Of a stretch of DNA of 64,000 bases, positions 7,562 through 40,766 are shown piece after piece. The stretch's first letter is position 1. The number at the start of each line of letters is the position of its first letter. The stretch covers positions 2,307,154-2,371,153 of the forward strand of contig OY762064.1 in NCBI GenBank assembly GCA_963665145.1. Reading direction: 5' to 3'. The position numbers and the translations under genes are program-made. A model generated the notes under the pieces. The model did not search any database, had not been told where the DNA came from, and worked only from the letters and a program-made list of their open reading frames with translations. This DNA is from Gammaproteobacteria bacterium. Lineage in GTDB: Bacteria > Pseudomonadota > Gammaproteobacteria > Steroidobacterales > Foliamicaceae.

Positions 7562-7618
7562 GCGCTCACCCGGCGCAGGGCGTTCCGCGCACAGTATTGG
7601 GAGGAACAGCACACGCGC

Positions 7619-15317: not shown

Positions 15318-16418
15318 ATGCCCTACATCTGGGAACTCAAAGACTGGCCGCATTTCACATGGAATGCGGGGGTTGTCCAGGACAATAGCTATCGCTACGC
15401 GCTAACCGTCAGCCGGCTGGCCAGCGAGGTGCGAGCGCTTTCCGACCAGGAGCGCACCAACTCGATGATTGATCTGATGGTCGCCGAGGCCCGGATGACA
15501 TCGCGGATTGAGGGCGAGACTGTTGATCCCGAAGCCGTTCGCTCATCCATCCTCAAGCAACTGGGCCTGGCCGAAGAGGATCGATGGCAAGATCCATACG
15601 CTCGCGGAATCGCCCGTCTGATGGTTCTGTGCCTCCAGGATTTTGCCGAACCGCTGACCGTTGAGGGCCTATGCTCCTGGCACCGTCAATTCCTGGGCGA
15701 AAGGATGCGCAACGCTGGGCGCTGGCGTACCGAGCCGATCTGGATCGTCTCCGGCGTTGCCGGGAAAGAAAAAGTGCACTTTGAGGGGCCTCCGGCTTCG
15801 CGGGTTGCCGGCGAAATGGAAGCCTTTGTCGAGTGGTTCAACGCCAGCAGTTCATTGCCGGGACCGGTGCGCTCCGGTGTGGCCCATTTGTATTTCGAGT
15901 CCATTCATCCATTTGCGGACGGAAATGGGCGCATGGGGAGGGCAATTGCCGAGATCGCGCTGTCGCAGGAATTGGGTTACCCGGCATTGCTGAGCTTGTC
16001 CGCCGCTATTGATCGGCAACGCAAGGAGTACTACCAGATGCTCAACGAGGCCAGCCGGCAAAGCAGTATGGACATTACCGGCTGGTTGGAATGGTGGGCA
16101 CAGTGCGTCCTGAATTCCCAGGAACAGGCCAGGGAACAGATCGCGTTTGTGATTCGCAAGGCGGAGTTCTGGCGCAGCTATGAGAATCGCGTCAACGACC
16201 GCCAGGAGAAGGTGTTGGCCCGCATGTTGCGCGAAGGGCCCGAGGGCTTCAAGGGTGGCATGAGTGCCCGCAAATACGTAGGACTGACGGGTTGCTCAGG
16301 TGCAACGGCCACCCGGGATCTGTCCTTGCTCACGAAAATCGGGGCGCTCGAACGGCTGCCCGCCGGCGGGCGCAGCACGCGCTATGTGCTGCGCTTTCCG
16401 GGATCACACGCGACATAA
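15318..16418 (+). CDS. Fic family protein (DUF4172-type N-terminus, C-terminal wHTH)
   Basis: Fic motif HPFADGNGRMGRA. N-terminus YIWELKDWPHFTW is typical of the long Fic family. Confidence 0.9.
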   Translation: MPYIWELKDWPHFTWNAGVVQDNSYRYALTVSRLASEVRALSDQERTNSMIDLMVAEARMTSRIEGETVDPEAVRSSILKQLGLAEEDRWQDPYARGIARLMVLCLQDFAEPLTVEGLCSWHRQFLGERMRNAGRWRTEPIWIVSGVAGKEKVHFEGPPASRVAGEMEAFVEWFNASSSLPGPVRSGVAHLYFESIHPFADGNGRMGRAIAEIALSQELGYPALLSLSAAIDRQRKEYYQMLNEASRQSSMDITGWLEWWAQCVLNSQEQAREQIAFVIRKAEFWRSYENRVNDRQEKVLARMLREGPEGFKGGMSARKYVGLTGCSGATATRDLSLLTKIGALERLPAGGRSTRYVLRFPGSHAT

Positions 16419-20245: not shown

Positions 20246-20818
20246 CTACGCTGTCGGCCAGGCTTGGTCCCGCCGAAAGTCAATTACTCCATGACTTCTC
20301 ACAATGTTCTTGCTTATTTCCGTGTCCTGTTCACAGAAGACGATCAGGTTCATCGAACCCGTGTGTCGTGCGCTGGGCACCAGTATTCCGTCAGCGCCCA
20401 GGAAGGCGCTCGCTTCGGCCACTTGCTGAGACCGTGTGTACTCTCCGTATCGCTTCACATAGGTCAGGCGCCCAATGGATGCAGCATCCAGACTCACGGC
20501 GGCTAAAGCCCCTACGTCGGGGAAACGAATCACTGCGCTTAGAGAGACACTCAGTTCGAACAGCTCGTAATTGATGTCGATAGGCGGAATCGGCTGCCCC
20601 TGGTAGAGGTGATATCGTCGTTCCGCAATCGCCGCCTCGCGGGTTTCTGACGTGTACAGGACGTCAAACGTCCCATCGTCCCATCGTCCTCCGGAGCGCG
20701 AGCAAATGAGTGGATCGCGGCCCTCTTTGACGGAACGCCAAACGATTCCCTCGTAGGACTCCTGGGCAACAGACTCCAGGGCGTCCAGCAATCGTTGGTC
20801 GCGAATCTGCGGATCCAT
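20246..20818 (-). CDS. RES-domain toxin (MbcT/ParT-like)
   Basis: RES-domain contexts GGRWDDGTFDVLYTSETREAAIAE and ILVPSARH. Sits immediately downstream of the cognate-type antitoxin. Confidence 0.85.
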   Translation of the reverse strand: MDPQIRDQRLLDALESVAQESYEGIVWRSVKEGRDPLICSRSGGRWDDGTFDVLYTSETREAAIAERRYHLYQGQPIPPIDINYELFELSVSLSAVIRFPDVGALAAVSLDAASIGRLTYVKRYGEYTRSQQVAEASAFLGADGILVPSARHTGSMNLIVFCEQDTEISKNIVRSHGVIDFRRDQAWPTA

Positions 20819-23419: not shown

Positions 23420-24268
23420 ATGAAGATCATCTCTTGGAACATGCAGCAAAAGCACGTCTCGTGGCGTCACCTTCTGCAAATGGATATCGACCTCGCGCTT
23501 CTCCAAGAGGCCGGCAAGCCGCCTCAAGATGTTGCAGAGCGAATCCAGGCCGACCCTGCAATCGAGATCAATTCGGCACCATGGCAGACCAGGACCGTTG
23601 GCGGCACAACCTCCTACAGAACTGCAATAGCCAAACTCTCTGACCGCATCGAAGTCGAGTGGATCGAAACGAGACCGATAGAGAAGGCTAACTCCGGAGA
23701 TTTAGTCGTCAGTTGGCCCGGTACGCTTACTGCGGCGATCGTTCATCCGGCTTCAGGCGCCCCTGTACTGGCTGTCTCGATGTATGCGCAGTGGCTTAGC
23801 ACGCATGCTTTGTCAGCAAGGAACCTCATATTTTCGGATAGCTCCGCTCACCGCGCTATTTCCGACTTGTCCGTTTTCATTGCGAAGGAGGATGGGCATC
23901 GCGTTCTGGCCGCCGGCGATCTGAATATCCTGCGCGGTTACGGCGAACATGGCAACGCCTACTGGGCCGCCCGCTACAACACTGTGTTTGATCGGATGGA
24001 GGCTTTGGGGCTGCCTTGCATCGGTCCGGAATATCCGAACGGCCGCCAGGCCGATCCGTGGCCGGACGAATTGCCGCGGGACAGTCGAAACGTTCCCACA
24101 TTTCATTCCAACCGCCAATCGCCGGCAACCGCTGCACGCCAATTGGACTACGTCTTTGCCTCAAAGGGACTCGCTGACTCGCTTGAAGTGCGCGCCCTCA
24201 ACAGGCCAGAGGAGTGGGGGCCAAGCGATCACTGTCGGATCGAGATTGAGCTTGCAGAAGGCAATTGA
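23420..24268 (+). CDS. endonuclease/exonuclease/phosphatase (EEP) family protein
   Basis: EEP catalytic contexts IISWNMQ, LALLQEAG, AAGDLNIL, GPSDHCRIEIEL. Confidence 0.75.
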   Translation: MKIISWNMQQKHVSWRHLLQMDIDLALLQEAGKPPQDVAERIQADPAIEINSAPWQTRTVGGTTSYRTAIAKLSDRIEVEWIETRPIEKANSGDLVVSWPGTLTAAIVHPASGAPVLAVSMYAQWLSTHALSARNLIFSDSSAHRAISDLSVFIAKEDGHRVLAAGDLNILRGYGEHGNAYWAARYNTVFDRMEALGLPCIGPEYPNGRQADPWPDELPRDSRNVPTFHSNRQSPATAARQLDYVFASKGLADSLEVRALNRPEEWGPSDHCRIEIELAEGN

Positions 24269-25308: not shown

Positions 25309-27417
25309 CTACTTGACTTTCGCTTCGTCGAATGGGACTTGAAAGACCAGCGGTCGCTCAGACCTTATCCATTTCCCAAAAGCCACTGCGTGGAGTCTAG
25401 GTAGATTTGGTATCAGTTCTATATGCTCTGGGCCATAAATATTTTTCAGGAAGCCCAGGCTCGTATCGTCATAGCACGAAAAAGTGACTATGGTGTTGCA
25501 TTGCGTAAGAACAGTCTTGCTGACTGTCGCAGTTCTTTGAGCGAGGACAAGAAGGCCTACTCCATACTTCCGACCCTGGAGGGCAATTTGCGCTATCTTT
25601 CCTACAAGGCCTCTTGATTCAAAGTCACCTAAGCCCATCGTACTAGCCTCAGGCATAACCGTATGCGCCTCTTCCACGACAATCAGTGTCGGTGGGCTAC
25701 TTCCCAGCCTTTCCCTAGCGTAACGAAGCAAACACGTCATGTAGAGCTCCGTAATCCATAGTGTAGCCCTTGTGTTTGATATCTCCTCCAGTTGAATTAG
25801 CCCTACTTTCGCCTCACAAGCTGCATCCATAAACTCTGAGATCGAATCATTGACGTTTTGGCGCACACGTTCCGCAAACTCTTCGAGTGCTCTCTTTTCC
25901 GCTCCCGCTCCATACGCGCCTGTTTCTACCTCAAACAGTTTCTGTCCTAATTCGTGTGCCGTTTCTTCTTCGATTGAAAGATCTTGAGGATTAAGATCGC
26001 TGAGTCGCCCAGCGTAATGAGATGTTAGGTCGATACAAACCACTTTAAGCCCCTGCTTCACGGAGTGACGAATCAAGTCAAATGCGAGTTCAGTCTTTCC
26101 CGATCCGGTAACGCCAAGAATCGCCGTGTGGTGGTTGTAATCAGTTGAAAAAGAGCCTCCGACCTCAATCCCTGTCCTTGGTATCGTCCCCAGCACGAAA
26201 TCATTTTCAGTGACAGCAGTTGTTGAGATCTGGTCTTCATCGCGTGCGGAAAACACCGGCGAATTCATCGCAGGCAGCCAATCAACCTTTGTAAAGCCTT
26301 GTTCATGCACCAATTTTCCCAGCTGCGTGGCCGTTGCGACTTGAAAGCCATGCTTGTCAGTTGAAAAAGTCTCTTCCTTGGTCTCCCCGGATACAACTTG
26401 GTAGTGAACTTTTTCTCCAGTCACGTTTGCCCATACCAACATGCCATCATGGCAGGTGGCGCTATCGAGTGTCTCAAATCGTATTGATCCAATCGTAGAG
26501 CCCTCGACGACAAACCCTCGCAGGACCGCCCCTTCACCACCTTCGAGTGCGGCGCTTATTTCCTCAGGACTCGGAATGTCCGTGGTTTTGTCAGGATCTA
26601 TTACACAATTCCTTCTTGCGGTGAGTACTTCCGCTTCCAATTCAGTCAATAGTCCTGTCGCCAGAAGTCTGCCTTCCTGAAACTGAGAGAACAGAGGCTG
26701 AACCCAATGCGCTCGTCCATTCGGAAGAAGAGCCACTTGCGGGCATGAGTGCTCCCATACCGCCTCGCCATGCAGGGCAACTCGCAGTATGTTCGGGCTG
26801 TCTACCCTTACAATTTCGCCTATAGTTCCCGCCTCCGGTTCTGTTCTGGAGAACCATGCTGTTAACAGCTCTGGCACCCTTAGCGGCCAAATTGCAAGAA
26901 ACAATCCCCAAAAGACAATTAGAGCCAAAGTAATGGGGTCTTGCGTGTCATAGAAAAACCAAAGGGCAGAGAGAAATACCACCGAAAACAGTGTCCTTGA
27001 TCTTCCAAGAACAACTGATGGTCTATACGTAAACTTGGCCACTCTTGCTCGCCAGCCGTCGATGCTAGGGGAAGAGCTAACAGATACACAGGCTATGCTC
27101 AGTACAAGAACGACCGCGCAGAAGCCGGCAATTACATTCCATGGAACAACGGGGGCAATTCCTCGCACTGTTAGCAAAGTTATGAGTCCCATCAGCGAGT
27201 TGACGACAGAATCCGCTGGCTTGGTGTAGTGCTTCTCTAGCAGTGCTGACCCAAGCACTATTAACAACAAAGCGTTCTGAAAGAGGACCGCTTCCTTTGC
27301 ATCTGTTGGCAAATACGATCCCGTGTAAGCTTTTGCAATTAGACCGCACGTAGCGGTGGCAAACACAAGAATCAGTATGCGAACCCATGGCGCTACTGCA
27401 TTTTTCATTCTAGACAT
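25309..27417 (-). CDS. membrane-anchored HerA/FtsK-superfamily (DUF87-like) ATPase
   Basis: N-terminal ~190 aa with about six hydrophobic helices. Central beta-barrel-like region (GFVVEGSTIGSIRFE...VHYQVVSGE). Walker A ILGVTGSGKTELAFDL, Walker B TLIVVEEAHTVMPE, then LQGRKYGVGLLVLAQRTATVSKTVLTQCNTIVTF. Confidence 0.8.
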   Translation of the reverse strand: MSRMKNAVAPWVRILILVFATATCGLIAKAYTGSYLPTDAKEAVLFQNALLLIVLGSALLEKHYTKPADSVVNSLMGLITLLTVRGIAPVVPWNVIAGFCAVVLVLSIACVSVSSSPSIDGWRARVAKFTYRPSVVLGRSRTLFSVVFLSALWFFYDTQDPITLALIVFWGLFLAIWPLRVPELLTAWFSRTEPEAGTIGEIVRVDSPNILRVALHGEAVWEHSCPQVALLPNGRAHWVQPLFSQFQEGRLLATGLLTELEAEVLTARRNCVIDPDKTTDIPSPEEISAALEGGEGAVLRGFVVEGSTIGSIRFETLDSATCHDGMLVWANVTGEKVHYQVVSGETKEETFSTDKHGFQVATATQLGKLVHEQGFTKVDWLPAMNSPVFSARDEDQISTTAVTENDFVLGTIPRTGIEVGGSFSTDYNHHTAILGVTGSGKTELAFDLIRHSVKQGLKVVCIDLTSHYAGRLSDLNPQDLSIEEETAHELGQKLFEVETGAYGAGAEKRALEEFAERVRQNVNDSISEFMDAACEAKVGLIQLEEISNTRATLWITELYMTCLLRYARERLGSSPPTLIVVEEAHTVMPEASTMGLGDFESRGLVGKIAQIALQGRKYGVGLLVLAQRTATVSKTVLTQCNTIVTFSCYDDTSLGFLKNIYGPEHIELIPNLPRLHAVAFGKWIRSERPLVFQVPFDEAKVK

Positions 27418-27576: not shown

Positions 27577-28605
27577 ATGGGTAATCTCCAATGGTGTCAC
27601 CAAATGAGCAATACAGGCAAATGCAAGCTTTGTAAACGGAATGGGCCACTCCAAATGAGCCATGTCATTCCGCGGTTTGTCAGGAAACAAACTAGAGCGA
27701 CTAGCGCTGTGGAGAACCCTAGGTACTACACAGTAGAGGGAGGTGAGTTCCAGAAGTTGGAGCAAGATTTCTCAAAGAGAGCTTGGCTTTGTCAACAATG
27801 CTAACAACTGCTCTCGCGTAGCGAGAAGAGGTTTTCGGAAGATGTCTACCAAGGCTTTTGGGCAGGCCGGGCCGGAAGCGCCGCGATCCATGGAGAGCAT
27901 GTTCATAGATTCCTGGTATTAACGACTTGGCGTGCGTGGCACTGGTACGACCAGCACCCCAAAAAGCCCTTTAGTAGGGTTTCAAATCAGGATCGCCTCA
28001 AGGAAGCTGAGCAAGCATGGAGAAACTATCTCCTTGGTGAGCGCGCCGATGTTGGAGAGTTCAAGCAACATATGCTGGCGCAAAGCAGGCAGATAGCTAG
28101 CGCTGGTGGATATTCAGTCACATTGGATGGCTACTACTGGGTTCGCGGTGTCAACTTGGATATGTTGAGTCGTGGGGAATCAACGGAAGAGATTCTCATG
28201 GTCTATACAAAGATCCCCAAGATCGCGATTTTTGGCGTAGTGGAGCGTGAGAAGATAGGTTTTTGGCGCGGCACACTCGTAGAACCACGTATGGGAGACA
28301 CATGGACAAGCCGAGATCCGATAGTTCCGGACCCGATTCTTCAATACATGAGTTATCAGAGCCATAAAATGCTCGCGAGTTTAGACACCGTTCCCGAGGA
28401 AGTTAAGAGAAAGACTAGGCAGAAGATGGAATCCCTCATCCAGAAGGAAGGCGACGAATACTTAGAGAGGGACGCAGTGCAATCCTTGGTGACAGACGAC
28501 CTGATGGAATTACCAGGAGAAAGCATCGTATCCGATGCAATTGGCTGGTTAGCAAAGTCCTTGGATCCGCGAGCCCAGAAAATGGGGAGCTACTCGGCAA
28601 CCTAA
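27577..28605 (+). pseudogene. Cys4 (zinc-ribbon-like) protein gene of unknown function interrupted by a single in-frame TAA at 27802-27804
   Basis: ORFs 27577-27804 and 28072-28605 are in the same frame. I translated 27805-28071 codon by codon and found no further stop (QLLSRSEKRFSEDVYQGFWAGR...EFKQHM). CKLC...SHVIPRFV...CQQC lies at the N-terminus. Confidence 0.6.
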
Positions 28606-29046: not shown

Positions 29047-29667
29047 TCAGTTACTTTGGATTGAATGACTTTCGAGTTGCGGCTTATGATGCGCATAAAA
29101 AATACTCTCCGCACGCTGAATAATGTCCGGTCTAACTAGCCGATGATAGGAGAGCTTTGGAAAGTTGTGTTCAATGGGCAGAGGATCTAATGGAAACATC
29201 CCAGTCTGCCTTGAAGTAAATGGTGTAATTCGGAAATCCCTGCAGAGTAGCTTGAGACCCTCTTTCTTCAGGAAGTCTTCAATTTTTTCAGCAAGTATGC
29301 GATCCGATCCGATATACAGCGAAATGTGCGGATTAAAGCCGTACTCTTCAATTGGATAGTCTGGTTTCCACCAAAGCCTATTTAGCCATTTGCTCCACAC
29401 TCGAATGTACACCACATAATTTCCTTGATTTTCGAACATACCAATACCATGAATCAAAAGCGGCTGATTGCCCGGCATCGCACTGAATGTTTTGAGTTTT
29501 TCTCTGGAAATTGTTTTGTTGTACGGTCCGCGAACTGTGATGTGAATATTTGTATGCCGCTCTTCGTCCGAGAACGCGGCTCGTAATCCACACAGCAAAC
29601 CGTTTATTTCAGGGTCCAATAACTCTAGGAATAAGAATTGCATTAACTTCGGTGACTTATGTCTCAT
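29047..29667 (-). CDS. 2H phosphoesterase superfamily protein (LigT/CPDase/2',5'-PDE-like)
   Basis: Two H-x-T/S-x tetrapeptides, NIHITVRG (His42) and NPHISLYIG (His114), with hydrophobic flanks and spacing typical of the 2H fold. 4-nt overlap with the upstream NTase gene. Confidence 0.7.
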   Translation of the reverse strand: MRHKSPKLMQFLFLELLDPEINGLLCGLRAAFSDEERHTNIHITVRGPYNKTISREKLKTFSAMPGNQPLLIHGIGMFENQGNYVVYIRVWSKWLNRLWWKPDYPIEEYGFNPHISLYIGSDRILAEKIEDFLKKEGLKLLCRDFRITPFTSRQTGMFPLDPLPIEHNFPKLSYHRLVRPDIIQRAESIFYAHHKPQLESHSIQSN

Positions 29668-30647
29668 AGCACCAAGTATTTCTTCATGTCAGATTTAACA
29701 CCGTTGTGCATTAGTGCCGAGTAAATGAAATCCGAGAATCTGCGCGCCGCCTCCCTTGAAACCTTGCCCAATTCCTCGGCCGGAATCTGTTCTGTTGTTC
29801 CATCCACATCCTTCCAAGACAGAAAGGACTCGTAATCATCAAGAAATTGCGTGTAGTCCTTGAGCATGCCTGAGTCGTTGAGCGCGTCTAGTCCACGTGA
29901 GAGTCTTTCAAGTGGAGTTAGGCGAACAAGGTCGAAGATGCAGTCCGCACTATGCATTTGTTCTACGAGAATTGGCAATATCGCTCCAAATACGGTTAGC
30001 TTCCGACTAAACTTCAAATTGATGTTCTTCTTTCTCCATGGTCGAGATTGATCAGATCGGATTTGTTCATAGTTCAAACAAAGCGTTCTCCAATACCTCA
30101 ATAGGTCATTTAGAAGAAATAGTGGCCGGAAGGATTGTTTCCCACTGCTGTCTCTGAAGTAGTGCGTAATAGTGCGACTCAGAGCGTCGTTGTATAGCTG
30201 CTCCCCTAAGATGCATTTGCTTTCTAAGAGCAAGAGCATTCTCGCTGTGAATAAGTTCTCGCTGTCGTCGTATGGAGCCCCAACTACTCGGAGCATTTCG
30301 TCGAGTGAATATACCTTTAGGAATTGTCCATCGTTGCTAAACGGCTCAAATTCCAGTAGCTCATTTATCTCGATGGCTGAGCTTTGTAATCGAATCTCAA
30401 TTAGACTCTCTGTCTCTTCTTCCGGACGGGTTGTTACCAAGAACAAGTCGAGATCAGATTGGGCTCCAATTTCGCCGCGTGCAAGTGAACCAGCGCAAAA
30501 GACAAACGCATCATAGTTGTTATAGATGTCAGCACGATTTGCGAATGCCTCTCGGACATCGTTTAGTCTTTTTCCTGCTTCCTCTTGTCTTTCGGATAAC
30601 CCAGGGTGTTGCCGAAGGCATTGCGTGTAAGTCGATTTTGCTGTCAT
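29664..30647 (-). CDS. Pol-beta-superfamily nucleotidyltransferase with long helical C-terminal domain
   Basis: NTase signature FVFCAGSLARGEIGAQSDLDLFLV (G-S...D-x-D), followed by ~230 aa of predicted helices. An in-frame TAA three codons upstream fixes the start. Confidence 0.75.
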   Translation of the reverse strand: MTAKSTYTQCLRQHPGLSERQEEAGKRLNDVREAFANRADIYNNYDAFVFCAGSLARGEIGAQSDLDLFLVTTRPEEETESLIEIRLQSSAIEINELLEFEPFSNDGQFLKVYSLDEMLRVVGAPYDDSENLFTARMLLLLESKCILGEQLYNDALSRTITHYFRDSSGKQSFRPLFLLNDLLRYWRTLCLNYEQIRSDQSRPWRKKNINLKFSRKLTVFGAILPILVEQMHSADCIFDLVRLTPLERLSRGLDALNDSGMLKDYTQFLDDYESFLSWKDVDGTTEQIPAEELGKVSREAARRFSDFIYSALMHNGVKSDMKKYLVL

Positions 30648-31075
30648 TTGGTGATCTTATGTTGTCGCGAACACGAAATGTCCAGTGCTGGAGGACCACA
30701 TCAGCGCAATTCTGCGGGTCCAACGGTTCCTCCAACACGTTGGTGACATTGTAGTTTCGCCTGTCCGGCTCTGGGTTTGACTGTTTCTTCATTTCCGAGC
30801 CGTGTTTGCTCCGGATGCCGCTACATGGGAAAATCCTCAGCCCGAAGGGAAGGGTTTACGGGGAAAGATCAGCCGTGCTCAACTTGCCAGTTAGCATGTT
30901 TTCGCCGCGCACGCCTATGCGCAGCGTCGCGGAATCCGTTTTTGGCGTGAAATTTCCACCTACAGGCTCGCAAAGTCAAATAGGCATCCTCGCCCTGAGG
31001 CGGCAAGCCAATCTAGCCGTGTATCAGCTCTCCTACTGACTAGCACAGGCTTGCCATACCCCGGAACAATCTATT

Positions 31076-33058
31076 ATGACCAACGGCAACGTTAACTGGA
31101 TCGCGAACTACATTTGGGGCATTTGCGACGATGTCCTCCGCGACCTCTACAGCCGCGGCAAATATCGTGACGTAATTCTGCCGATGACGGTGCTACGCCG
31201 GCTCGATGTCGTTCTTGAAAGCACCAAGCAGGCCGTCCTGGACTTGAAAGAGATGCTAGACCAAGCTGGGGTGGTCGACCAGGATGCAGCCCTTTGTCAA
31301 GCATCCGGACAGGCTTTCTACAATACCTCGAAATTCACGTTGAGCGACCTTCGTGCAAGGGCCAGTCAGGCGCAACTGAAGGCAGATTTCGAAGCCTACC
31401 TCGACGGATTTTCCTCAAACGTGCAGGAGATCCTCGACAACTTTGAGTTCCGTAACCAGATCCCACGGCTCAGCAAGGGCGACGCGCTTGGAGCCCTGAT
31501 CGAGAAGTTAACGTCCCCTGCGGTGAACCTGAGCCCCAAGCCGGTGAAGGACGCTCAAGGAAACATCAAGCTCCCCGGTCTAGACAACCATGCGATGGGT
31601 ACGATGTTCGAAGAACTCGTTCGCCGCTTCAACGAAGAGAACAACGAAGAAGCCGGCGAGCACTGGACTCCGCGCGATGCGGTCCGGCTCATGGCGAAAC
31701 TGGTGTTTCTGCCCATTGCTGACCAGATCCAGTCCACCACATACGCCCTCTATGATGGTGCTTGCGGAACCGGGGGAATGCTAACCCTCGCGGAAGAGAC
31801 GCTGGAGGAATTGGCGGCGGAACAAGGCAAAAGGGTTTCCACGGTCCTGTACGGCCAAGAAATCAACGCCGAGACCGCCGCCATATGCAAAGCTGACCTG
31901 ATGCTCAAGGGTGAGGGCGAGGCCGCCAAGAACATCGTCGGCGGGCCCGAGCACTCGACCCTGGCCAATGACGCGTTTCCGTCTCGCACTTTCGACTTCA
32001 TGCTTTCCAACCCGCCCTACGGCAAGAGTTGGAAGACCGATCTAGAGCGGATGGGCGGTAAAAAAGACATGCACGATCCGCGGTTCGTAATTGAGCACAA
32101 TGGAAGTCCCGAGTACTCGTTGGTCACCCGGTCGAGCGATGGTCAGATGTTGTTCCTAGTCAACAAGCTCTCTAGGATGAAGCAGGACACGCTGCTCGGC
32201 AGCCGCATCGCCGAGGTCCATAACGGCAGTGCACTCTTTACCGGAGCTGCTGGCCAGGGTGAGAGCAACATTCGCCGCTGGATTATCGAGAACGACTGGT
32301 TAGAAGCCATCGTCGCCCTGCCGCTTAACCTGTTCTATAACACGGGCATTGCCACCTACGTGTGGGTGCTAACGAACCGGAAGCCGGAGCACCGCAGGGG
32401 CAAGGTACAGTTGATCGACGCGACCCAATGGTTCCAGCCATTGCGCAAAAGCCTAGGGAAGAAGAATTGCGTGCTCGGCGAGGATGACATCGCGCGGATT
32501 AGCCGTACGTTCTTGGATTTCGAGGAGACTGAGCAGAGCATGATCTTCGAAAACGACACTTTCGGGTACTGGAAGGTACCAGTCGAGCGACCCCTTCGCG
32601 TTGATGGTGCTGAACTGGAACGCGCCTACACAGCGGCAGAGATCAAGGCGCTCAAAGAAAGTGGCGAATGCAGCGAAAATGCCCCGCCGGTCATCCGCAA
32701 GATTCACAAGCGCGGGGTTAAGGCCGACCCGATTCACGGGCTACATGAGACGACGATTGGCGGCCAGCTGGTTGTCGTGGAATACGAACCGGACCGTCAA
32801 TTGCGGGACACTGAGCAGGTTCCGCTTCAGGAGGAAGGAGGGATTAAGGCATTCCTGGAGCGCGAGGTTCTTCCCTACGCTGAGGACGCCTGGTACAAGC
32901 CGAACGCCGTCAAGATCGGTTATGAAATTAGCTTCACGCGTTATTTTTATAAGCCGAAGCTAATGCGCACGCTAGATGAGATTCGGGCCGATCTCCTCGC
33001 GTTGGAAGAGGAGACAGAAGGGGTGCTCGGAGATATTTTGGGAAGCGCCAACACATGA
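31076..33058 (+). CDS. hsdM: type I restriction-modification system DNA methyltransferase subunit
   Basis: AdoMet motif YDGACGTGGML and catalytic LSNPPYGKSW. HsdM-type N-terminal helical domain. 660 aa. Confidence 0.92.
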   Translation: MTNGNVNWIANYIWGICDDVLRDLYSRGKYRDVILPMTVLRRLDVVLESTKQAVLDLKEMLDQAGVVDQDAALCQASGQAFYNTSKFTLSDLRARASQAQLKADFEAYLDGFSSNVQEILDNFEFRNQIPRLSKGDALGALIEKLTSPAVNLSPKPVKDAQGNIKLPGLDNHAMGTMFEELVRRFNEENNEEAGEHWTPRDAVRLMAKLVFLPIADQIQSTTYALYDGACGTGGMLTLAEETLEELAAEQGKRVSTVLYGQEINAETAAICKADLMLKGEGEAAKNIVGGPEHSTLANDAFPSRTFDFMLSNPPYGKSWKTDLERMGGKKDMHDPRFVIEHNGSPEYSLVTRSSDGQMLFLVNKLSRMKQDTLLGSRIAEVHNGSALFTGAAGQGESNIRRWIIENDWLEAIVALPLNLFYNTGIATYVWVLTNRKPEHRRGKVQLIDATQWFQPLRKSLGKKNCVLGEDDIARISRTFLDFEETEQSMIFENDTFGYWKVPVERPLRVDGAELERAYTAAEIKALKESGECSENAPPVIRKIHKRGVKADPIHGLHETTIGGQLVVVEYEPDRQLRDTEQVPLQEEGGIKAFLEREVLPYAEDAWYKPNAVKIGYEISFTRYFYKPKLMRTLDEIRADLLALEEETEGVLGDILGSANT

Positions 33059-34397: not shown

Positions 34398-37300
34398 ATG
34401 ACCACAGACACCTCCGAACGTGGCCTCGAACGCCTGATATGCATGGCGTTGGCTGGGGATTCATGCGAGCCCCCCAAAGGGCCGACTGTCGCCGAACCTG
34501 TTGCTGCTTGGGGCGGCATTGGCTGGAGCCCGGGCAACTTTCATCACTACGACCGCGAGTTTTGCATCGATCTGCTCCAACTCGCCGCGTTTCTGGAACT
34601 TACTCAATCTCGTACTATGAGTTCGCTCAACCTTGCCGAAGACAGCCCTACACGGCGCAAGTTTCTGGCACGGCTGCAGCGTGAGGTCAGCAAGCGGGGC
34701 AGCATTGATATCTTGCGCCATGGCATCAAACATGGCCCGCACCACCTGGATCTCTTCTACGGTACGCCTTCTCCCGGCAACGAGAAAGCAAAGAAACGAT
34801 TCGAGAAGAATCGATTCACCGTTACCCGGCAACTGCGCTACAGTCGCGACGAGGCACAGCGTGCTCTGGACATCGTGCTGTTCATCAACGGCCTGCCGAT
34901 ACTCACGTTCGAACTGAAGAACAGCCTTACCAAGCAGACTGTCGATGACGCTATCGAGCAGTACAAACGAGACCGAAATCCACGCGAAAAGCTGTTCGAG
35001 TTCGGCCGCTGCGTGGCTCATTTCGCGGTGGACGACCACGAGGTACGCTTCTGCACGCACCTGAAGGGTAAAGGATCTTGGTTTCTACCCTTCAATCTAG
35101 GCTGGAACGATGGGGCCGGAAATCCGCCTAACTCTATGGGAATCAAGTCTGACTACCTGTGGCGCAAGGTGCTCGCCCGCGAGAGTTTGACAAACATCCT
35201 GGAAAACTACGCCCAGGTGGTCGAGTCTAAGGACGAAAAGACCGGTCGCAAGAAAAAAACCCAAATCTGGCCCCGCTATCACCAACTGGACGTGGTGCAG
35301 CATCTGCTCTCCAATGTCGCGGAAAACGGTGCAGGAAAGCGTTACCTCATCCAGCATTCCGCCGGCAGCGGTAAGAGCTACTCGATTGCCTGGCTGGCCC
35401 ATCAACTGATCGGTCTGAAGCATGGAGGGTTTACGGCTTTCGATTCCATAATTGTCGTGACCGACCGGCGCATCCTCGACAAGCAGATTCGCGACACGAT
35501 CAAGCAGTACGCTCAGGTTGGCGCGACGGTCGGGCATGCCAAACGATCTGGCGATCTCCGCCGGTTCCTTGAGGACGGCAAGAAGATCATCGTATCGACG
35601 GTGCAGAAGTTTCCCTTCATCCTCAATGAGATCGGAAACGAGCAGCGCGGACGTCGGTTCGCGATCATTATCGATGAGGCTCATTCCAGTCAAGGCGGTC
35701 GCACCAGCGCGGCTATGTCAGGGGCGCTTTCCGAAGCCGGCCGGGTCGACGAGGAAGAAACCTATGAAGACCGCATCAACAAGCTGATGGAGTCCCACAA
35801 GCTCCTGTTCAACGCGAGCTATTTTGCGTTCACTGCGACTCCCAAGAATAAGACACTGGAGATTTTTGGTGATGCAGATCCGCAGGCGGACGGCAGAGTA
35901 GAGCATCGAGCCTTCCACAGCTACACCATGAAACAGGCCGTCCAGGAGGGGTTCATTCTGGACGTGCTGACCCACTACACGCCGATATCGAGTTACTACA
36001 AGCTCACCAAGACCATCGAAGAAGACCCCAAGTTCGACACCCAAAAGGCGCAGAAGAAGCTGCGTCGCTTCGTCGAAGGGCACGAGCACGCAATCCGAGC
36101 CAAGGCCGAGATCATGGTTGACCACTTTCACGATCAGGTGATTCGGCAGAACAAGATCGGCGGCGAGGCACGGGCGATGGTCGTTACCAACGGCATCGAA
36201 AGGGCCGTCCAGTACTTCCACGCCATACGCGACTACCTCAAAGAGCGCAAGAGCCCGTTTAAGGCGATCGTAGCCTTTTCCGGGGAGCACGAGTTTGGCG
36301 GGAAGTCCGAGACCGAGGCCAGTTTGAACGGTTTTCCGTCCGCAAAGATTGCGGAGCGCTTCCGGGAACACCCCTACCGGTTCCTGGTTTGCGCCGACAA
36401 GTTTCAGACTGGCTACGACGAGCCGCTATTGCACACCATGTATGTGGACAAGACGCTCGCCGGCATCAAGGCAGTGCAGACGCTGTCTAGGTTGAACCGG
36501 GCCCGTCCCAACAAGCACGATGTATTCGTATTGGACTTCCTCAACGATTCTGAAACCATCCAGATCGCTTTCGAACCCTTCTACCGTGGAACGGTACTCG
36601 CCGACCAGACGGACCCCAACAAGCTGCACGACCTAGTGGCCGATTTGGACGGCGCGCAGGTTTACTCCGATGAGCAAATCGACAGCTTGGTTTCCCAGTA
36701 TCTCGACGGAGCGGACCGGGACCGGCTCGATCCGATCCTCAACGATTGCGTGGCTTCCTATAAGAGCGATCTCGACGAAGACGGCCAGATCCGCTTCAAA
36801 GGTAAAGCAAAGGCGTTCGTGCGGACCTATGCGTTTCTCGGTTGCGTGCTCCCCTACAACAACCCTGGGTGGGAAAAGCGCTCCATCTTCCTGAATTTCC
36901 TGATCCCCAAACTTCCGTCACCGGAGGAAGACGATCTCTCCAGGGGCATTCTCGAAGCGATTGACATGGACAGCTACCGCGTCGAGAAGCGCGCAACGCA
37001 AACGATCCTTCTAGAGGACGAAGAAGGCGAGATCGGACCTGTGCCCACATCTGGCATGGGTGGACGGCCGGAGCCCGAGATGGACCCGTTATCGGAGATT
37101 TTGCGGGATTTCAACGATCGGTTCGGCGACATCGAATGGGAAGATGCAGATCGCGTCCGCGCTTTGATCGCCGAGACCATCCGCTCACGAGTAGCCGACG
37201 ACGAAGCTTACCGAAACGCCCGGGAAAACTCCGACAAGGAAAACGCCCGCGTGGAGCACGACCGCGCTCTGCTCCGCGTGATGACTTCGCTAATGAAGGA

Positions 37301-37400
37301 CGATACGCAGCTGTTCAAACTGTTCATGGACGATCCAGGGTTCAAGCGGTGGCTGACGGAAAAGATTTTCCATCTGACCTACTACGAAGCCGGTGTCTAA
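34398..37400 (+). CDS. hsdR: type I restriction endonuclease R subunit (SF2 helicase/translocase)
   Basis: Walker A IQHSAGSGKS, DEAH box IIIDEAHSSQGG, FTATPKN, motif VI QTLSRLNR. 1000 aa. Confidence 0.92.
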   Translation: MTTDTSERGLERLICMALAGDSCEPPKGPTVAEPVAAWGGIGWSPGNFHHYDREFCIDLLQLAAFLELTQSRTMSSLNLAEDSPTRRKFLARLQREVSKRGSIDILRHGIKHGPHHLDLFYGTPSPGNEKAKKRFEKNRFTVTRQLRYSRDEAQRALDIVLFINGLPILTFELKNSLTKQTVDDAIEQYKRDRNPREKLFEFGRCVAHFAVDDHEVRFCTHLKGKGSWFLPFNLGWNDGAGNPPNSMGIKSDYLWRKVLARESLTNILENYAQVVESKDEKTGRKKKTQIWPRYHQLDVVQHLLSNVAENGAGKRYLIQHSAGSGKSYSIAWLAHQLIGLKHGGFTAFDSIIVVTDRRILDKQIRDTIKQYAQVGATVGHAKRSGDLRRFLEDGKKIIVSTVQKFPFILNEIGNEQRGRRFAIIIDEAHSSQGGRTSAAMSGALSEAGRVDEEETYEDRINKLMESHKLLFNASYFAFTATPKNKTLEIFGDADPQADGRVEHRAFHSYTMKQAVQEGFILDVLTHYTPISSYYKLTKTIEEDPKFDTQKAQKKLRRFVEGHEHAIRAKAEIMVDHFHDQVIRQNKIGGEARAMVVTNGIERAVQYFHAIRDYLKERKSPFKAIVAFSGEHEFGGKSETEASLNGFPSAKIAERFREHPYRFLVCADKFQTGYDEPLLHTMYVDKTLAGIKAVQTLSRLNRARPNKHDVFVLDFLNDSETIQIAFEPFYRGTVLADQTDPNKLHDLVADLDGAQVYSDEQIDSLVSQYLDGADRDRLDPILNDCVASYKSDLDEDGQIRFKGKAKAFVRTYAFLGCVLPYNNPGWEKRSIFLNFLIPKLPSPEEDDLSRGILEAIDMDSYRVEKRATQTILLEDEEGEIGPVPTSGMGGRPEPEMDPLSEILRDFNDRFGDIEWEDADRVRALIAETIRSRVADDEAYRNARENSDKENARVEHDRALLRVMTSLMKDDTQLFKLFMDDPGFKRWLTEKIFHLTYYEAGV

Positions 37401-38146
37401 TGGGCGCCAGTTATCCAACCAAACTGACCCTTGCATTTCGTAGTGGTGACCGATGCGCCTTTCCGGTCTGCGATCGAGCACTTTCCGCTGGCGGGGAAGG
37501 ATCAAGCCCCATAGTGACGGGTGTTGCCGCACACATTGTGGGAGAAAAACCAGGGTCTGCTCGCTTCGATGCTGCGATGCCCGCAGAGCAACGCAATAGT
37601 CATGACAACTTGATCTACCTATGCAGAGATCACCATGACTTAATTGATAAGAGAGAAGAAGAGTTCCCTGTCGAAAGGCTACGCCGCATGAAGCAGGAGC
37701 ATGAGGCGAGGGTGCTTGAGGCAGTAACCCAGGCATTCGCCTCTGTGGGCTTTTCGGAACTCGAAGTAGCGACTCACGCTTTGTTGCAGTCGGAACTAGG
37801 AGAAGTGAGTCGGGATTTCTCGCTGACTGCATTGAATAACAAGATCAAGAAAAACGCACTGGGAATCAATTCGCGGATCATCATAACGTCGGGACTAAGC
37901 TTGTCGGGAGAAATTCAAAACTTCATTGAGTGCGTTGCACAAACCGACGAGCATTTCGCAGAGAGACTTAAGCTAGGATTTCTCAGCGAATACCATCGCC
38001 TTAGAAAAGAAGGCCACTTTGGCGACGTGCTTTTCGAACTAATGTGCCGCTTCGCTCAAGAAGGATTTAGCGAACAGGCGAGTCGATCTGCTGCACTTGC
38101 AATCTTGATCTACTTATTCGAGACTTGCGAAGTATTCGAGAAATGA
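37400..38146 (+). CDS. HNH endonuclease fused to an ABC-three-component-system-type C-terminal domain (effector component)
   Basis: CAFPVCDR...AAHIVGEKPGSARFD...HDNLIYLCRDHHDLIDK (CxxC...H...N...CxxHH). Helical C-terminal domain ending LIYLFETCEVFEK. Start ATG shares its A with the hsdR TAA (TAATG). Confidence 0.7.
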   Translation: MGASYPTKLTLAFRSGDRCAFPVCDRALSAGGEGSSPIVTGVAAHIVGEKPGSARFDAAMPAEQRNSHDNLIYLCRDHHDLIDKREEEFPVERLRRMKQEHEARVLEAVTQAFASVGFSELEVATHALLQSELGEVSRDFSLTALNNKIKKNALGINSRIIITSGLSLSGEIQNFIECVAQTDEHFAERLKLGFLSEYHRLRKEGHFGDVLFELMCRFAQEGFSEQASRSAALAILIYLFETCEVFEK

Positions 38147-38370
38147 TTTTACCGTCAAAGCACATCTCAGAGGATCAGACAGTTCTGGGAATTGGTGCCC
38201 TCCTTTTGCAGTACCTAGATCGGCCACAGACGGTCACTAGTCTTTGGAACAAAGTACGGAATGAGCGCGTGGTGGGCACATTCGAACGATTTGTTGTGAC
38301 GCTAGACTTTCTCTATATCATCGGATTGGTCGTGTTATCCCATGGCACGATTCGCAAGTTGGTGCCATGA
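38143..38370 (+). CDS. small middle-component-like protein of the ABC-three-component module
   Basis: 75 aa. ATGA overlaps at both ends. Position between effector and ABC ATPase matches the described ABC-3C gene order. The sequence itself is not diagnostic. Confidence 0.55.
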   Translation: MILPSKHISEDQTVLGIGALLLQYLDRPQTVTSLWNKVRNERVVGTFERFVVTLDFLYIIGLVVLSHGTIRKLVP

Positions 38371-40127
38371 TCCACGGCATAACCGCCAACCACGACTCCT
38401 TTCATGCCGTGGAATTCACAACGGGTCTCAACGTAATCCTCGCTGAGCGCTCGGCTGCGGCAACGGAGAAAGACACGAGGAACGGGCTTGGGAAATCCAC
38501 GCTCATAGAGATTATCCACTTTTGTCTTGGCAGCCGTGCTGATAAAGGCAAGGGTCTCTCGATTGATGCTTTGAATGACTGGACTTTCACGGTTGATCTC
38601 ACGCTGTCCGGCAATCGAGTTAGAGCTACCAGGGCCGTAGCCGATCCCAATCGGGTTCTGATTGAAGGCCCCACCGGAGGCTGGATTGAGCAACCGGAAA
38701 GTGACGACTTGTTGCGTCAGCGTTCGTTCAAAGTTGAACGATGGCGAACTCTACTTGGATGGTCGCTGTTCGGCTTGCATCCGTTGGAAGGTAAGAGCTC
38801 CTATCGACCTAAGTATCGTAGTTTGATTTCGTATTTCATCCGACGTGGACCCGATGCCTACGTTAGCCCCTTTCGACACTTTCGACAGCAAAACACCTGG
38901 GACATACAGCTTCACATTGCTTATCTGCTAGGTATGAACTGGGAATATGCGGCCCAATGGCAGAAATTGAAGGATAGAGCAGCTGCAATCAGCGCAGTTC
39001 AAAAGGCCAAAAAAACAGGCGCCTTGGATGGTTCAATTAGCAGTATCGGAGAATTAGAGACTCAGGTAATTCAGCTCGAACAACAGGCCAGCGTGGCAAG
39101 GAACGCGTTGGACAATTTCAAAGTCCATCCACAATATGAAGCACTGCAAAGGGATGCCGATGGCCTGACCAGTCAGGTACATGAGTCAACTAACCGTAAT
39201 GTTGCTGATCGGCGGCGACTAACACGATACAAAGAGTCAATCAGGGAGGAGAAGCCGCCAAGCAGAATTTCTTTGAAGAAAATATACGAGGAATGCGGCG
39301 TGGTGTTTTCTGCAACTTTGCAGCGGTCGCTGGATCAAGCAAGAACCTTTCATGACGAGATCATTTCCAATAGGCGCGCGTTCTTGAGCGCTGAGATCAA
39401 GAATCTACGCGAAACCATTAGACAGCGAAACGGCAAGATCAAGACACTTACCGATAAGCGCGCGGAAGTCTTGCAGGTACTTGAGACACACGGCGCCCTA
39501 CAGGAGATGACCAGTTTGCGTGAGCAGTTCGTTAAACAGCAAGAGTCGCTTGAGCGAGCCCGAACTCACTTAAGTGAATTGAAGGAGTTAAATTCGTCTA
39601 AACGCGACATCAAGAAAAACACAGAAGAATTGTTGCGATTGGCGGAGCAAGATCATGAGGATAGAAGACAAGTTTGGTCTGAGGCCGTCCGCCTGTTCAA
39701 CGAGTATTCTCAGGTACTCTATGAGTCTCCCGGGAAGCTGGTCATTGACGTTAGCGATACAGGATACAAGTATCGGGTTGATATAGAAAGAAGCGGTAGC
39801 GAAGGCATCGAGAAAATGAAGGTATTCTGTTTTGACTTGTTGGCATTACGTTTGCGAAGAAAGGCGAGTAACGGCTTAAATTTCCTTATTCACGACTCTT
39901 TGGTTTACGACTCTGTAGACAGCAGACAACGCGCACTAGCGTTGGAGCAAGCGCATCGCATTACGACTGCGGTAGGTGGACAGTACATCTGTGCAATTAA
40001 TTCAGACATGGTCCCCAGCAAGGACTTTAGTGATGAATTCGAATTCAATCGGCATGTGCGCCTTACCCTATCCGATGCGAAGCCAGCAGGGAGCTTACTG
40101 GGCATACGATTTGAGGCGTCGATTTGA
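38367..40127 (+). CDS. ABC/SMC-like ATPase with coiled-coil insert (DUF2326/YydD-like, ABC-3C ATPase component)
   Basis: N-terminal FTTGLNVILAERSAAATEKDTRNGLGKSTLIEIIHFCLG (Walker A). ~200 aa of heptad-like coiled coil. C-terminal FLIHDSLVYDSVD (Walker B/D-loop). Confidence 0.75.
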   Translation: MIHGITANHDSFHAVEFTTGLNVILAERSAAATEKDTRNGLGKSTLIEIIHFCLGSRADKGKGLSIDALNDWTFTVDLTLSGNRVRATRAVADPNRVLIEGPTGGWIEQPESDDLLRQRSFKVERWRTLLGWSLFGLHPLEGKSSYRPKYRSLISYFIRRGPDAYVSPFRHFRQQNTWDIQLHIAYLLGMNWEYAAQWQKLKDRAAAISAVQKAKKTGALDGSISSIGELETQVIQLEQQASVARNALDNFKVHPQYEALQRDADGLTSQVHESTNRNVADRRRLTRYKESIREEKPPSRISLKKIYEECGVVFSATLQRSLDQARTFHDEIISNRRAFLSAEIKNLRETIRQRNGKIKTLTDKRAEVLQVLETHGALQEMTSLREQFVKQQESLERARTHLSELKELNSSKRDIKKNTEELLRLAEQDHEDRRQVWSEAVRLFNEYSQVLYESPGKLVIDVSDTGYKYRVDIERSGSEGIEKMKVFCFDLLALRLRRKASNGLNFLIHDSLVYDSVDSRQRALALEQAHRITTAVGGQYICAINSDMVPSKDFSDEFEFNRHVRLTLSDAKPAGSLLGIRFEASI

Positions 40128-40263: not shown

Positions 40264-40337
40264 TGGGCCGTGAGGGAATCGAACCCGCAACCAATGGATT
40301 AAGAGTCCACTGCTCTACCTAGTTGAGCTAACGGCCC
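40264..40337 (-). tRNA. tRNA-Lys (anticodon CTT), no encoded CCA, one T-stem mismatch
   Basis: Hand-folded cloverleaf: GGGCCGT/ACGGCCC acceptor, GCTC/GAGC D-stem, anticodon loop CTCTTAA, T-loop TTCGATT. C50:T64 is unpaired. The 3' flank is TCA, not CCA. Confidence 0.8.
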
Positions 40338-40443
40338 GTTGTGTGCAGGAAGTGCTCCTGCGGAAGGGGTGCAATATTGCCACAGGATTGCTCGTGCGGA
40401 GCGGTTCAAGTGAGGGCGGGGCGACCTCTTTCCCAGGAAAAGG

Positions 40444-40520
40444 TGGGGTGGACGATGGGATTCGAACCCACGACGACCAGATCCACAATCTGGGGCTCTA
40501 CCAACTGAGCTACGCCCACC
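40444..40520 (-). tRNA. tRNA-His (anticodon GTG) with G-1 and encoded CCA
   Basis: Hand-folded. Extra 5' G pairing with discriminator C, anticodon loop TTGTGGA, T-loop TTCGAAT, terminal CCA. Confidence 0.9.
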
Positions 40521-40569
40521 ACGGTTGATGCTTGCCGCCCGGCACGCCGCTTCGTGCCGTTTCGGCCGA

Positions 40570-40646
40570 TGGCGCGCCTGGCAGGACTCGAACCTGCAAC
40601 CACCGGCTTAGAAGGCCGATGCTCTATCCGGTTGAGCTACAGGCGC
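40570..40646 (-). tRNA. tRNA-Arg (anticodon TCT) with encoded CCA
   Basis: Hand-folded. GCGCCTG/CAGGCGC acceptor, anticodon loop CTTCTAA, T-loop TTCGAGT, terminal GCCA. Confidence 0.9.
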
Positions 40647-40689
40647 ATCGACTGGTTAATCCGGGAATGCGGCGGCCCGTTTAGCGCAG

Positions 40690-40766
40690 TGGTCGGGGTA
40701 AACGGATTTGAACCGTTGACCTTCTGCTCCCAAAGCAGACGCGCTACCAGACTGCGCCATACCCCG
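40690..40766 (-). tRNA. tRNA-Pro (anticodon TGG) with encoded CCA
   Basis: Hand-folded. CGGGGTA/TACCCCG acceptor, anticodon stem-loop TCTGC-TTTGGGA-GCAGA, T-loop TTCAAAT, terminal ACCA. Confidence 0.9.

Follow-up and report, generated by a model that had tools for sequence, protein, structure and literature searches.

Several bacterial conflict systems, DarT-DarG and the toxSAS pair FaRel-SAH among them, rely on an enzyme that installs a nucleotide-derived modification or product and on a dedicated hydrolase that reverses it. Others make use of nucleotidyltransferases (NTases): MenT and AbiEii embody the idea of a toxin that is itself an NTase and extends tRNA 3′ ends with nucleotides, and MntA is partnered by HepT, a HEPN RNase. 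Here we describe a pair of adjoining genes for an NTase and a 2H phosphoesterase, which lies in a 64,000-nucleotide stretch of a gammaproteobacterial genome (Foliamicaceae; assembly GCA_963665145.1, contig OY762064.1, positions 2,307,154 to 2,371,153 of the forward strand); this whole stretch we call the window. The reading that we favour, and hold tentatively, is that the pair is a horizontally mobile writer-eraser toxin-antidote module, in which the product of the NTase would be harmful and the 2H enzyme would remove it.

With DarT-DarG and FaRel-SAH the pair shares the adjacency and co-transcription of its genes, a mobile island and a defence context, the writer-eraser logic being suggested here by partner swapping and decay. 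The enzymes are different: where those pairs have an ADP-ribosyltransferase or a RelA/SpoT enzyme this one has a Pol-beta NTase, and where they have a macrodomain or SAH it has a 2H enzyme. Although the concept of MenT and AbiEii is close, and AbiEii genes are frequent neighbours of the pair, the NTase has no DUF1814/MenT match in Pfam, PADLOC or Foldseek, and to our knowledge none of the MenT antitoxins is a phosphodiesterase. As in HepT-MntA, the NTase gene overlaps a downstream gene for an RNA-acting enzyme; however, MntA is minimal (120-147 residues in the matched solved chains), whereas the NTase here has 327 residues and a helical domain, and the partner is a 2H and not a HEPN protein. 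The sole match of the NTase in the defence libraries, and a remote one, is component A of the PADLOC candidate PDC-M70 (E 4.9e-29, residues 11-278), which distant plasmid homologues of the NTase match at 1e-45 to 1e-54. PDC-M70B was matched neither by the 2H protein nor by any partner scanned, including the partners of the plasmid and third-clade homologues described below, and no papers on PDC-M70 were found in the literature searched. The original prediction had named no defence system for the pair, and PADLOC, Pfam and NCBIfam supply none beyond this candidate. The module lies outside DarTG, toxSAS-SAH, MenT/AbiE, HepT-MntA, CBASS and any PADLOC system; in the literature searched, both the NTase-2H pair and the exchange of partners among 2H, 2H-methyltransferase, Cap18-like exonuclease and TIR fusion are undescribed.

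The pairing of the two genes is obligate. A scan of the NTase alignment against 185,579 species genomes gave 80 loci. Among the 53 that are at least 39% identical to the query, the 2H gene directly follows the NTase in 51, and it does so in four more distant loci (55/57 outside a clade that is paired with an exonuclease). The two exceptions, which have no 2H of this family directly after the NTase, are L054, with a fragmented NTase and no 2H, and L042 from Duganella, to which we return. Reverse anchoring on the 2H in metagenome contigs yielded 48 loci, 42 of them with enough upstream sequence; an NTase lies upstream in 41 of these, and the lone orphan 2H is N-terminally truncated. The distance from stop to start is -11 to +19 nucleotides (nt) in 66 of 68 intact pairs, with a mode of -4. 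Since the pairing recurs in more than 100 independent loci it is far beyond chance, and the dedicated, conserved operon that had been predicted is borne out on both sides. In organisation the pair resembles toxin-antitoxin (TA) genes in general, being small, adjacent, co-directional, tightly spaced, inherited together and patchily distributed.

The identity matrices of the two proteins are correlated (Mantel r=0.76, a value reached by 0/2000 permutations), and the NTase and the 2H co-evolve. Mean identity among homologues is 40% for the NTase and 29% for the 2H; of the two the 2H evolves the faster, as is usual for an antitoxin. The 150 flanking open reading frames (ORFs) scanned from about 40 loci yielded no conserved third gene, and no family was seen more than four times in them. 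Synteny with the closest relative of the window, L144, breaks just past the 2H stop codon (29047), the common block reaching 29053. Because pairing is obligate, no third gene is conserved and synteny ends at the 2H, the NTase and 2H genes constitute a self-contained, mobile two-gene module.

The flanking genes are a mixture of housekeeping genes with Mrr, HNH, CBASS cyclase/E1-E2, DISARM, BrxH and AbiL, and the annotated TA genes nearby include HigB, Phd-PIN, HicAB, BrnT, AbiEii and RES; the setting rich in defence and TA genes that had been proposed for the pair is thus seen in its neighbours. A general functional link to type I restriction-modification (R-M), which adjoins the pair in the window, L001 and L144, was considered and rejected: HsdM/R/S or an Eco57I-like methyltransferase lies within about 8 kb of only 2/55 stand-alone pair loci. 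The hosts are Gamma-, Beta- and Alphaproteobacteria, Acidobacteriota, Binatia, Nitrospirota, Campylobacterota and the Candidate Phyla Radiation (CPR). IMG/VR viral contigs yielded neither protein, and a phage-borne, anti-defence origin was dropped for that reason. Tractable hosts with related genes include Neisseria meningitidis, Pseudoxanthomonas and Variovorax, together with an E. coli plasmid that carries a distant NTase homologue; in the culturable pathogen N. meningitidis 1273_NMEN (L051, 3164-4613) the NTase is 41% identical and the 2H is short, at 157 residues.

A second line of evidence is the asymmetric decay of the two genes. All 12 disruptions that we recorded (12/12) fall in the NTase: its N-terminal 110 residues are lost in L026, the catalytic core is deleted in frame in L074 and similarly in L139, an insertion sequence (IS) interrupts the gene in L062, and frameshifts lie in mid-gene in L028, L053, L057, L059, L060, L061, L123 and L138. 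By our own arithmetic, with targets of 984 versus 621 nt, this gives p ~0.003, or p ~0.02 when L022 is counted as a reverse case. The 2H beside a broken NTase retains HxT...HxS/T in 9/9 loci of the genome set, these nine being the loci covered by a residue-by-residue check that leaves out L123, L138 and L139. Outside the exonuclease-paired clade and the distant plasmid homologues there is no case of an intact NTase without a 2H-type partner; the sole blemish is L022, where Gln replaces H42 of the 2H. In one chimera (P0309) a deletion joins NTase residues 1-205 to the 2H. The two states of the NTase can also be found in a single sample, ERZ25068511 (L004/L005): the chromosome has an N-terminally truncated NTase beside the 2H, and a contig of 1x coverage has an identical 2H with a full-length NTase and then an IS. 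This population appears to be heterogeneous for the state of the NTase.

The third line of evidence is the exchange of partners among relatives of the NTase. A sister clade (L063, L065, L067-L073, L075 and L077-L089; mostly Solirubrobacterales and Acidobacteriota), with NTases 32-38% identical to the query, lacks the 2H in 23/23 loci. In every one of them a gene of about 225 codons lies directly upstream of the NTase, co-directional in five and divergent in 18, and encodes a DEDDh 3′-5′ exonuclease (Pfam RNase_T, Rv2179c-like). PADLOC scans of four of these partners all gave its 'Effector/Exonuclease' model, PDLC00753 (E 7e-35 to 6e-48), and the exonuclease is homologous to E. coli Cap18 (PDB 7T2S, E 7e-29; PMC12345164). 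In P0316 exonuclease and NTase are fused directly in one protein. In a third clade (L145-L149) the gene after the NTase encodes a protein of some 700 residues, which joins an N-terminal 2H domain, with the motifs PHITVRYF and FHITVYDG and a match to the hidden Markov model (HMM) of the window's 2H family (E 2e-7 to 5e-12), to an Eco57I-like N6-adenine methyltransferase. After the L042 NTase comes a 151-residue 2H-SAK protein (Pfam PF22547, E 6e-19), and a 2H-methyltransferase fusion (5541-7679; E 4e-14 to the 2H-family HMM) is beside it as well, so that this fusion adjoins a related NTase in 6/6 loci (L145-L149 and L042). A few third-clade NTases, such as that of L145, carry an N-terminal ThsB-like (Thoeris-like) TIR domain. 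Among distant plasmid homologues, one from Mycobacterium adjoins a HIT hydrolase and one from Rhizobium adjoins a histidine phosphatase in a glycosyltransferase cluster. Another, on the E. coli plasmid pISHS7_5 (L090, 711-1706; 4.5 kb, ColE1-type; PDC-M70A E 5e-54), has little besides Rop for company; an unannotated, AT-rich ORF of 157 codons lies just upstream of it. The theme that recurs among these relatives is the coupling of the NTase to an enzyme that cleaves nucleotide phosphoesters.

How might such a module work? The NTase, as writer, would use NTPs and join one or more nucleotides through a phosphodiester bond, most likely to an RNA 3′ end (tRNA-like) or another nucleic-acid end, or alternatively into a short free oligonucleotide. 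We infer products of this kind because 2H enzymes and DEDDh exonucleases cleave phosphodiesters at 3′ termini or in short oligonucleotides. Once accumulated, the product would harm the cell or an infecting phage; the 2H, as eraser, translationally coupled on the same mRNA, would hydrolyse it and so protect the cell, and an imbalance – should the element be lost, say, or a phage shut off host expression – would allow it to build up. The NTase would then be dispensable and potentially harmful, and the 2H indispensable, elsewhere replaced by a 3′-5′ exonuclease or another 2H. Because ThsB-like TIR domains are fused to the NTase polypeptide in some relatives, we place the NTase on the side of effector or toxin, and these fusions fit with a part in killing. 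The TA and defence neighbours, the low GC content and an island edge at a tRNA cluster (below) are typical of TA and defence modules.

Several considerations weigh against this reading. The writer-eraser mechanism is one that we infer. The nearest structural relatives of the NTase, DrrA and GlnE, modify proteins and not nucleic acids, and their TM-scores are only 0.46-0.48. 2H enzymes classically need a ribose 2′/3′ phosphate context, which limits the products that one could erase. Many neighbours of the pair are housekeeping genes, and plasmid L090 has no recognisable hydrolase partner. Two of the NTase frameshifts (L028 and L059) are in long-read metagenome-assembled genomes (MAGs) and may be sequencing errors, and in L022 an intact NTase stands beside a 2H with Q for H42.

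The exchanged partners could also be viewed as steps in the processing of RNA ends. On this account the pair is a healing cassette: the 2H would open the 2′,3′-cyclic phosphate left by a ribotoxin cut in tRNA or rRNA and the NTase would restore the 3′ nucleotides; in the sister clades the DEDDh exonuclease would trim the end, and the fused methyltransferase could mark the repaired molecule in the manner of Pnkp-Hen1. The fold of the 2H is indeed closest to RNA 2′,3′-cyclic phosphodiesterases (PDEs), LigT/YjcG and plant CPDase, and the replacement partner in L042 belongs to a Pfam family named for the 2H domain of 'Swiss Army Knife' proteins, which we take to be RNA-repair proteins. 2H enzymes, moreover, process RNA ends left by metal-independent RNases (PMC5512222). 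We nevertheless think the account unlikely, in its form for the pair and in its extension to the sister clades alike. RNA ligase, kinase and phosphatase genes are never linked among the 150 flanking ORFs; an opened cyclic phosphate leaves a 2′- or 3′-phosphate that still blocks extension by the NTase; the methyltransferase of the fusions is of DNA type, for N6-adenine (PADLOC MTase_II, E 1e-101 to 1e-121); and the TIR fusions do not fit. Cooperation of the two enzymes also predicts decay of both genes, but decay is seen almost exclusively in the NTase.

The NTase itself consists of a Pol-beta-fold core and a family-specific helical domain. Residues 53-71 read GSLARGEIGAQSDLDLFLV, and G53, S54, D65 and D67 are invariant in an alignment of 30 homologues; at 25.9 bits the protein clears the cut-off of 21 set for Pfam NTP_transf_2 (PF01909). 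In the AlphaFold2 (AF2) model built from the alignment (pLDDT 88.1) an N-terminal alpha/beta core gives way to helices that extend from about residue 125 to 326, and the helical domain carries nearly invariant, family-specific basic motifs, NDLLRYWRTLCLNYE and PWRKKNINLKFSR. The motif at P203-R215 may contact phosphate or nucleic acid; used as a search pattern, it recovered 128 genomic relatives. An exhaustive profile search among 1.84 billion cluster representatives reached 1866 with E<=1e-3, of which 427 have E<=1e-30; the family is modest in size and uncharacterised. Pfam covers its generic NTase core only, and the defence libraries hold for it only the one remote candidate.

A fold search with the NTase model returned Pol-beta NTases only. 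Its whole-length Foldseek matches are DrrA (6yx5_B, from Legionella, E 2e-4) and the N-terminal (1v4a) and C-terminal (3k7d) domains of E. coli GlnE, with E 2e-4 to 4e-3, TM 0.46-0.48 and 12-13% identity over about 340 columns; a profile search of PDB sequences also ranks DrrA first, via the G-X11-D-X-D motif. To judge from the models, the architecture is closest to that of the GlnE/DrrA adenylyltransferases; the motif is shared with them, and the combination of NTase core and helical domain may be. It differs from GlnE and DrrA/SidM in the low identity, in size and in context, and in having no glutamine synthetase, PII or Rab substrates, and the erasers of those enzymes known to us are not 2H enzymes. 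Aminoglycoside NTases, Hailong HalB and MntA are weaker matches (TM 0.2-0.3), which speaks against an antibiotic NTase or an MntA as the identity of the protein. That it is a small-molecule NTase, acting on an antibiotic or metabolite beside an unrelated gene, we regard as highly improbable. ANT(4′), AadA and ANT(9) are among the weaker matches, and the distant Rhizobium homologue sits in its glycosyltransferase cluster beside a histidine phosphatase, but TM-scores to ANT enzymes are 0.20-0.32 as against the values for GlnE and DrrA, and a conserved, co-evolving, overlapping 2H partner would go unexplained.

The downstream protein belongs to the 2H phosphoesterase superfamily, an assignment that is confirmed because motifs and fold agree. 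Across an alignment of 45 homologues H42, T44, G47, P48, K101, P113 and H114 are invariant; among genomic homologues the first motif has H in 56/57 and T in 57/57, and the second has H in 57/57 and S/T in 57/57. The family has signatures of its own (HITVRGPY, WWKPDYP and NPHIS) and a C-terminal helix. The one homologue with Gln for the first catalytic His (PQITVRGPY), at 8971-9549 of L022, adjoins an intact NTase; the MAG is a long-read one, and the Gln may be a sequencing error. The AF2 model, likewise built from the family alignment (pLDDT 90.3), is a single catalytic domain, and its Foldseek matches in the PDB are phage PDE-9 (9Q2Y/9Q2G), B. subtilis YjcG and Arabidopsis CPDase (TM 0.35-0.48); those in the viral library BFVD are RNA 2′,3′-cyclic PDE, LigT-like proteins and Acb1 (TM up to 0.54), all with a Foldseek probability of 0.98-1.0. 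By sequence the protein is elusive: the window's 2H has no Pfam, NCBIfam or meaningful PADLOC match, and a sequence-only PDB search returned nothing beyond ribosomal-protein noise; some of its homologues have precomputed PF13563 matches. With the viral 2H PDEs (Acb1, PDE-9 and the coronavirus and rotavirus 2′,5′-PDEs) and with LigT, YjcG and CPDase it shares the 2H fold and both HxT/S motifs. It differs from all of these in identity (11-18%), in similarity of structure (TM 0.35-0.54) and in its own signatures and C-terminal helix, and from the viral enzymes in that its gene is chromosomal, tied to the NTase and absent from the viral contigs scanned.

That a catalytically intact 2H survives beside a dead NTase in about 12 lineages bears directly on a reading in which the roles are reversed. 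Here the pair would be a type VII-like TA system, with the 2H as an RNase-type toxin and the NTase as an antitoxin that AMPylates it, as MntA acts on HepT; the toxin of the sister clades would be the DEDDh exonuclease or the TIR domain. Nucleases and TIR domains are typical toxins, the NTase is closest in architecture to the protein-AMPylating DrrA and GlnE, and the overlapping arrangement, NTase first and partner second, is the usual order of antitoxin and then toxin. A tyrosine specific to the family, Y49 of HITVRGPY, adjoins the 2H active site, but it is kept in just 38/57 homologues and is ruled out as a universal AMPylation site. The NTase, furthermore, is no MNT protein (NCBIfam MntA E 0.017, 15 bits against a cut-off of 60; TM 0.24-0.26), and a constitutive toxin freed of its antitoxin should kill. 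We consider the reversal of roles quite improbable.

Signalling was central to the original prediction, which had proposed, by analogy with OAS and CD-NTases, a synthase with a degrader or effector and, in one version, 2′-5′ signalling with a built-in off-switch. In such a minimal defence system the NTase would sense infection and make a linear or 2′-5′ oligonucleotide messenger, and the 2H would be either a nuclease effector that this messenger activates or the off-switch for a receptor with its gene elsewhere. The place of the pair within a defence island is in keeping with this, as are the ThsB-like TIR-NTase fusions and the sister-clade partner, with its 'Effector/Exonuclease' match and its homology to the CBASS accessory protein Cap18. 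So too is the structure that the 2H matches best in the PDB, an Acb1-like PDE from a phage, which cuts cyclic dinucleotides; PDE-9 cleaves 3′3′-cGAMP (bioRxiv 10.1101/2025.08.21.671373). The analogy itself is not supported. The top 50 Foldseek matches of the NTase, headed by DrrA and both GlnE domains, include no cGAS, OAS or DncV structure, and no PADLOC cyclase model matches it. A sensor module is missing from the 2H, which has just the one catalytic domain, neither protein contains a canonical effector domain, as had been noted by eye, and no conserved receptor or effector gene was found among the flanking ORFs; with neither a cGAS/DncV/OAS-like fold nor a linked signal-sensing effector, the pair does not resemble CBASS. 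Nor does a sensor-effector pair predict decay of the NTase alone. Signalling, and the 2′-5′ version with it, is in our view a decidedly poor prospect. The general idea in the earlier proposal, of a synthase and a degrader, agrees with the writer-eraser reading.

A broader conjecture, which we advance as an improbable one, is that the pair is the minimal form of an unrecognised principle of immunity or addiction, in which an NTase superfamily (about 1,900 cluster representatives) is accompanied by a self-protecting eraser that has been exchanged repeatedly. The NTase, at times fused to TIR, would nucleotidylate nucleic-acid ends or make a toxic oligonucleotide, and the erasers would be the stand-alone 2H, the 2H-N6-adenine methyltransferase (with a logic like that of R-M) and the Cap18-like 3′-5′ exonuclease. 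Were this so, a 2H phosphodiesterase would be an antitoxin and exonucleases of the Cap18 type would gain a defined role as erasers. The narrower writer-eraser reading, if true, would add a new toxin-antidote or defence chemistry in which a GlnE/DrrA-like NTase is countered by a 2H phosphodiesterase. It would also suggest what Cap18, the unexplained accessory exonuclease of CBASS, might do, namely erase the products of NTases, and it would bring four architectures – NTase+2H, NTase+2H-methyltransferase, NTase+exonuclease and TIR-NTase – into one testable family. The module should be of real interest to those who study defence and TA systems.

The anatomy of the locus (Table 1) agrees with what had been read from the letters: two overlapping minus-strand genes, a Pol-beta signature with a helical domain in the first product, the paired 2H tetrapeptides HITV and HISL in the second, and a low-GC island with a HerA-like ATPase on one side of the pair and a type I R-M/ABC-3C cluster on the other. 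The overlap implies that translation of the 2H is coupled to that of the NTase. Between the window and L144 the intergenic region upstream of the NTase is 93% identical, and the whole shared block (29053-31852) 90.4%. Scans around the operon, this region included, gave no consensus promoter or terminator above chance and no Rfam match.

Table 1. Coordinates of the NTase-2H pair, its motifs and neighbouring features in the window
Feature	Position	Strand	Remarks
NTase gene	29664-30647	-	327 aa; from the ORF list
2H phosphoesterase gene	29047-29667	-	206 aa; from the ORF list
ATGA stop/start overlap	29664-29667	-	NTase stop TGA and 2H start ATG shared
Intergenic region up to the divergent hsdM	30648-31075		Presumed operon promoter
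NTase motif G53-S54...D65-x-D67 (G-X11-D-X-D)	30447-30491	-	Columns invariant in the NTase alignment
NTase basic motif P203-WRKKNINLKFS-R215, helical domain	30003-30041	-	Invariant or nearly invariant columns
First 2H motif, H42-I-T44 (HxT), within HITVRGPY	29536-29544	-	H42, T44, G47, P48 invariant
Second 2H motif, H114-I-S116 (HxS/T), within NPHISLY	29320-29328	-	P113, H114 invariant
Fic/DUF4172 protein	15318-16418	+	
RES-domain toxin	20246-20818	-	
EEP-family phosphoesterase	23420-24268	+	
HerA-like ATPase	25309-27417	-	702 aa; Pfam DUF87; PADLOC HerA, E 6e-23
String of short ORFs	27577-28605	+	75, 59, 54 and 177 aa, mixed frames
PADLOC candidate PDC-M68 pair	37136-40127	+	HNH/ABC-3C CTD10 protein, E 4e-82; DUF2326 ABC-type ATPase, E 4e-212
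Four tRNA genes	40264-40766	-	Lys-CTT, His-GTG, Arg-TCT, Pro-TGG

The pair has a GC content of 0.45-0.48, as against 0.62-0.67 beyond the island. On one flank is the HerA-like ATPase, which is membrane-anchored and has a long hydrophobic N-terminal region; no Sir2, DUF4297 or NurA partner was recognised adjoining it. Between it and the 2H gene lies the string of short ORFs, which has no family matches and looks like a decayed gene. The last of these, of 177 codons (28072-28605, downstream of the 2H), was considered as a member of the module and set aside because it is absent from the block shared with the closest relative. On the other flank are hsdM/S/R and the ABC-3C-like PDC-M68 pair. The HMM match of the HNH/ABC-3C CTD10 protein begins only at residue 89, so that translation of the protein probably starts close to the stop of hsdR at 37400. 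At the four tRNA genes GC climbs from about 0.48 to 0.65, and the cluster is likely to mark the island boundary or an integration site. Upstream, a stretch of moderately low GC holds three further genes of conflict type, for the Fic/DUF4172 protein, the RES-domain toxin and the EEP-family phosphoesterase.

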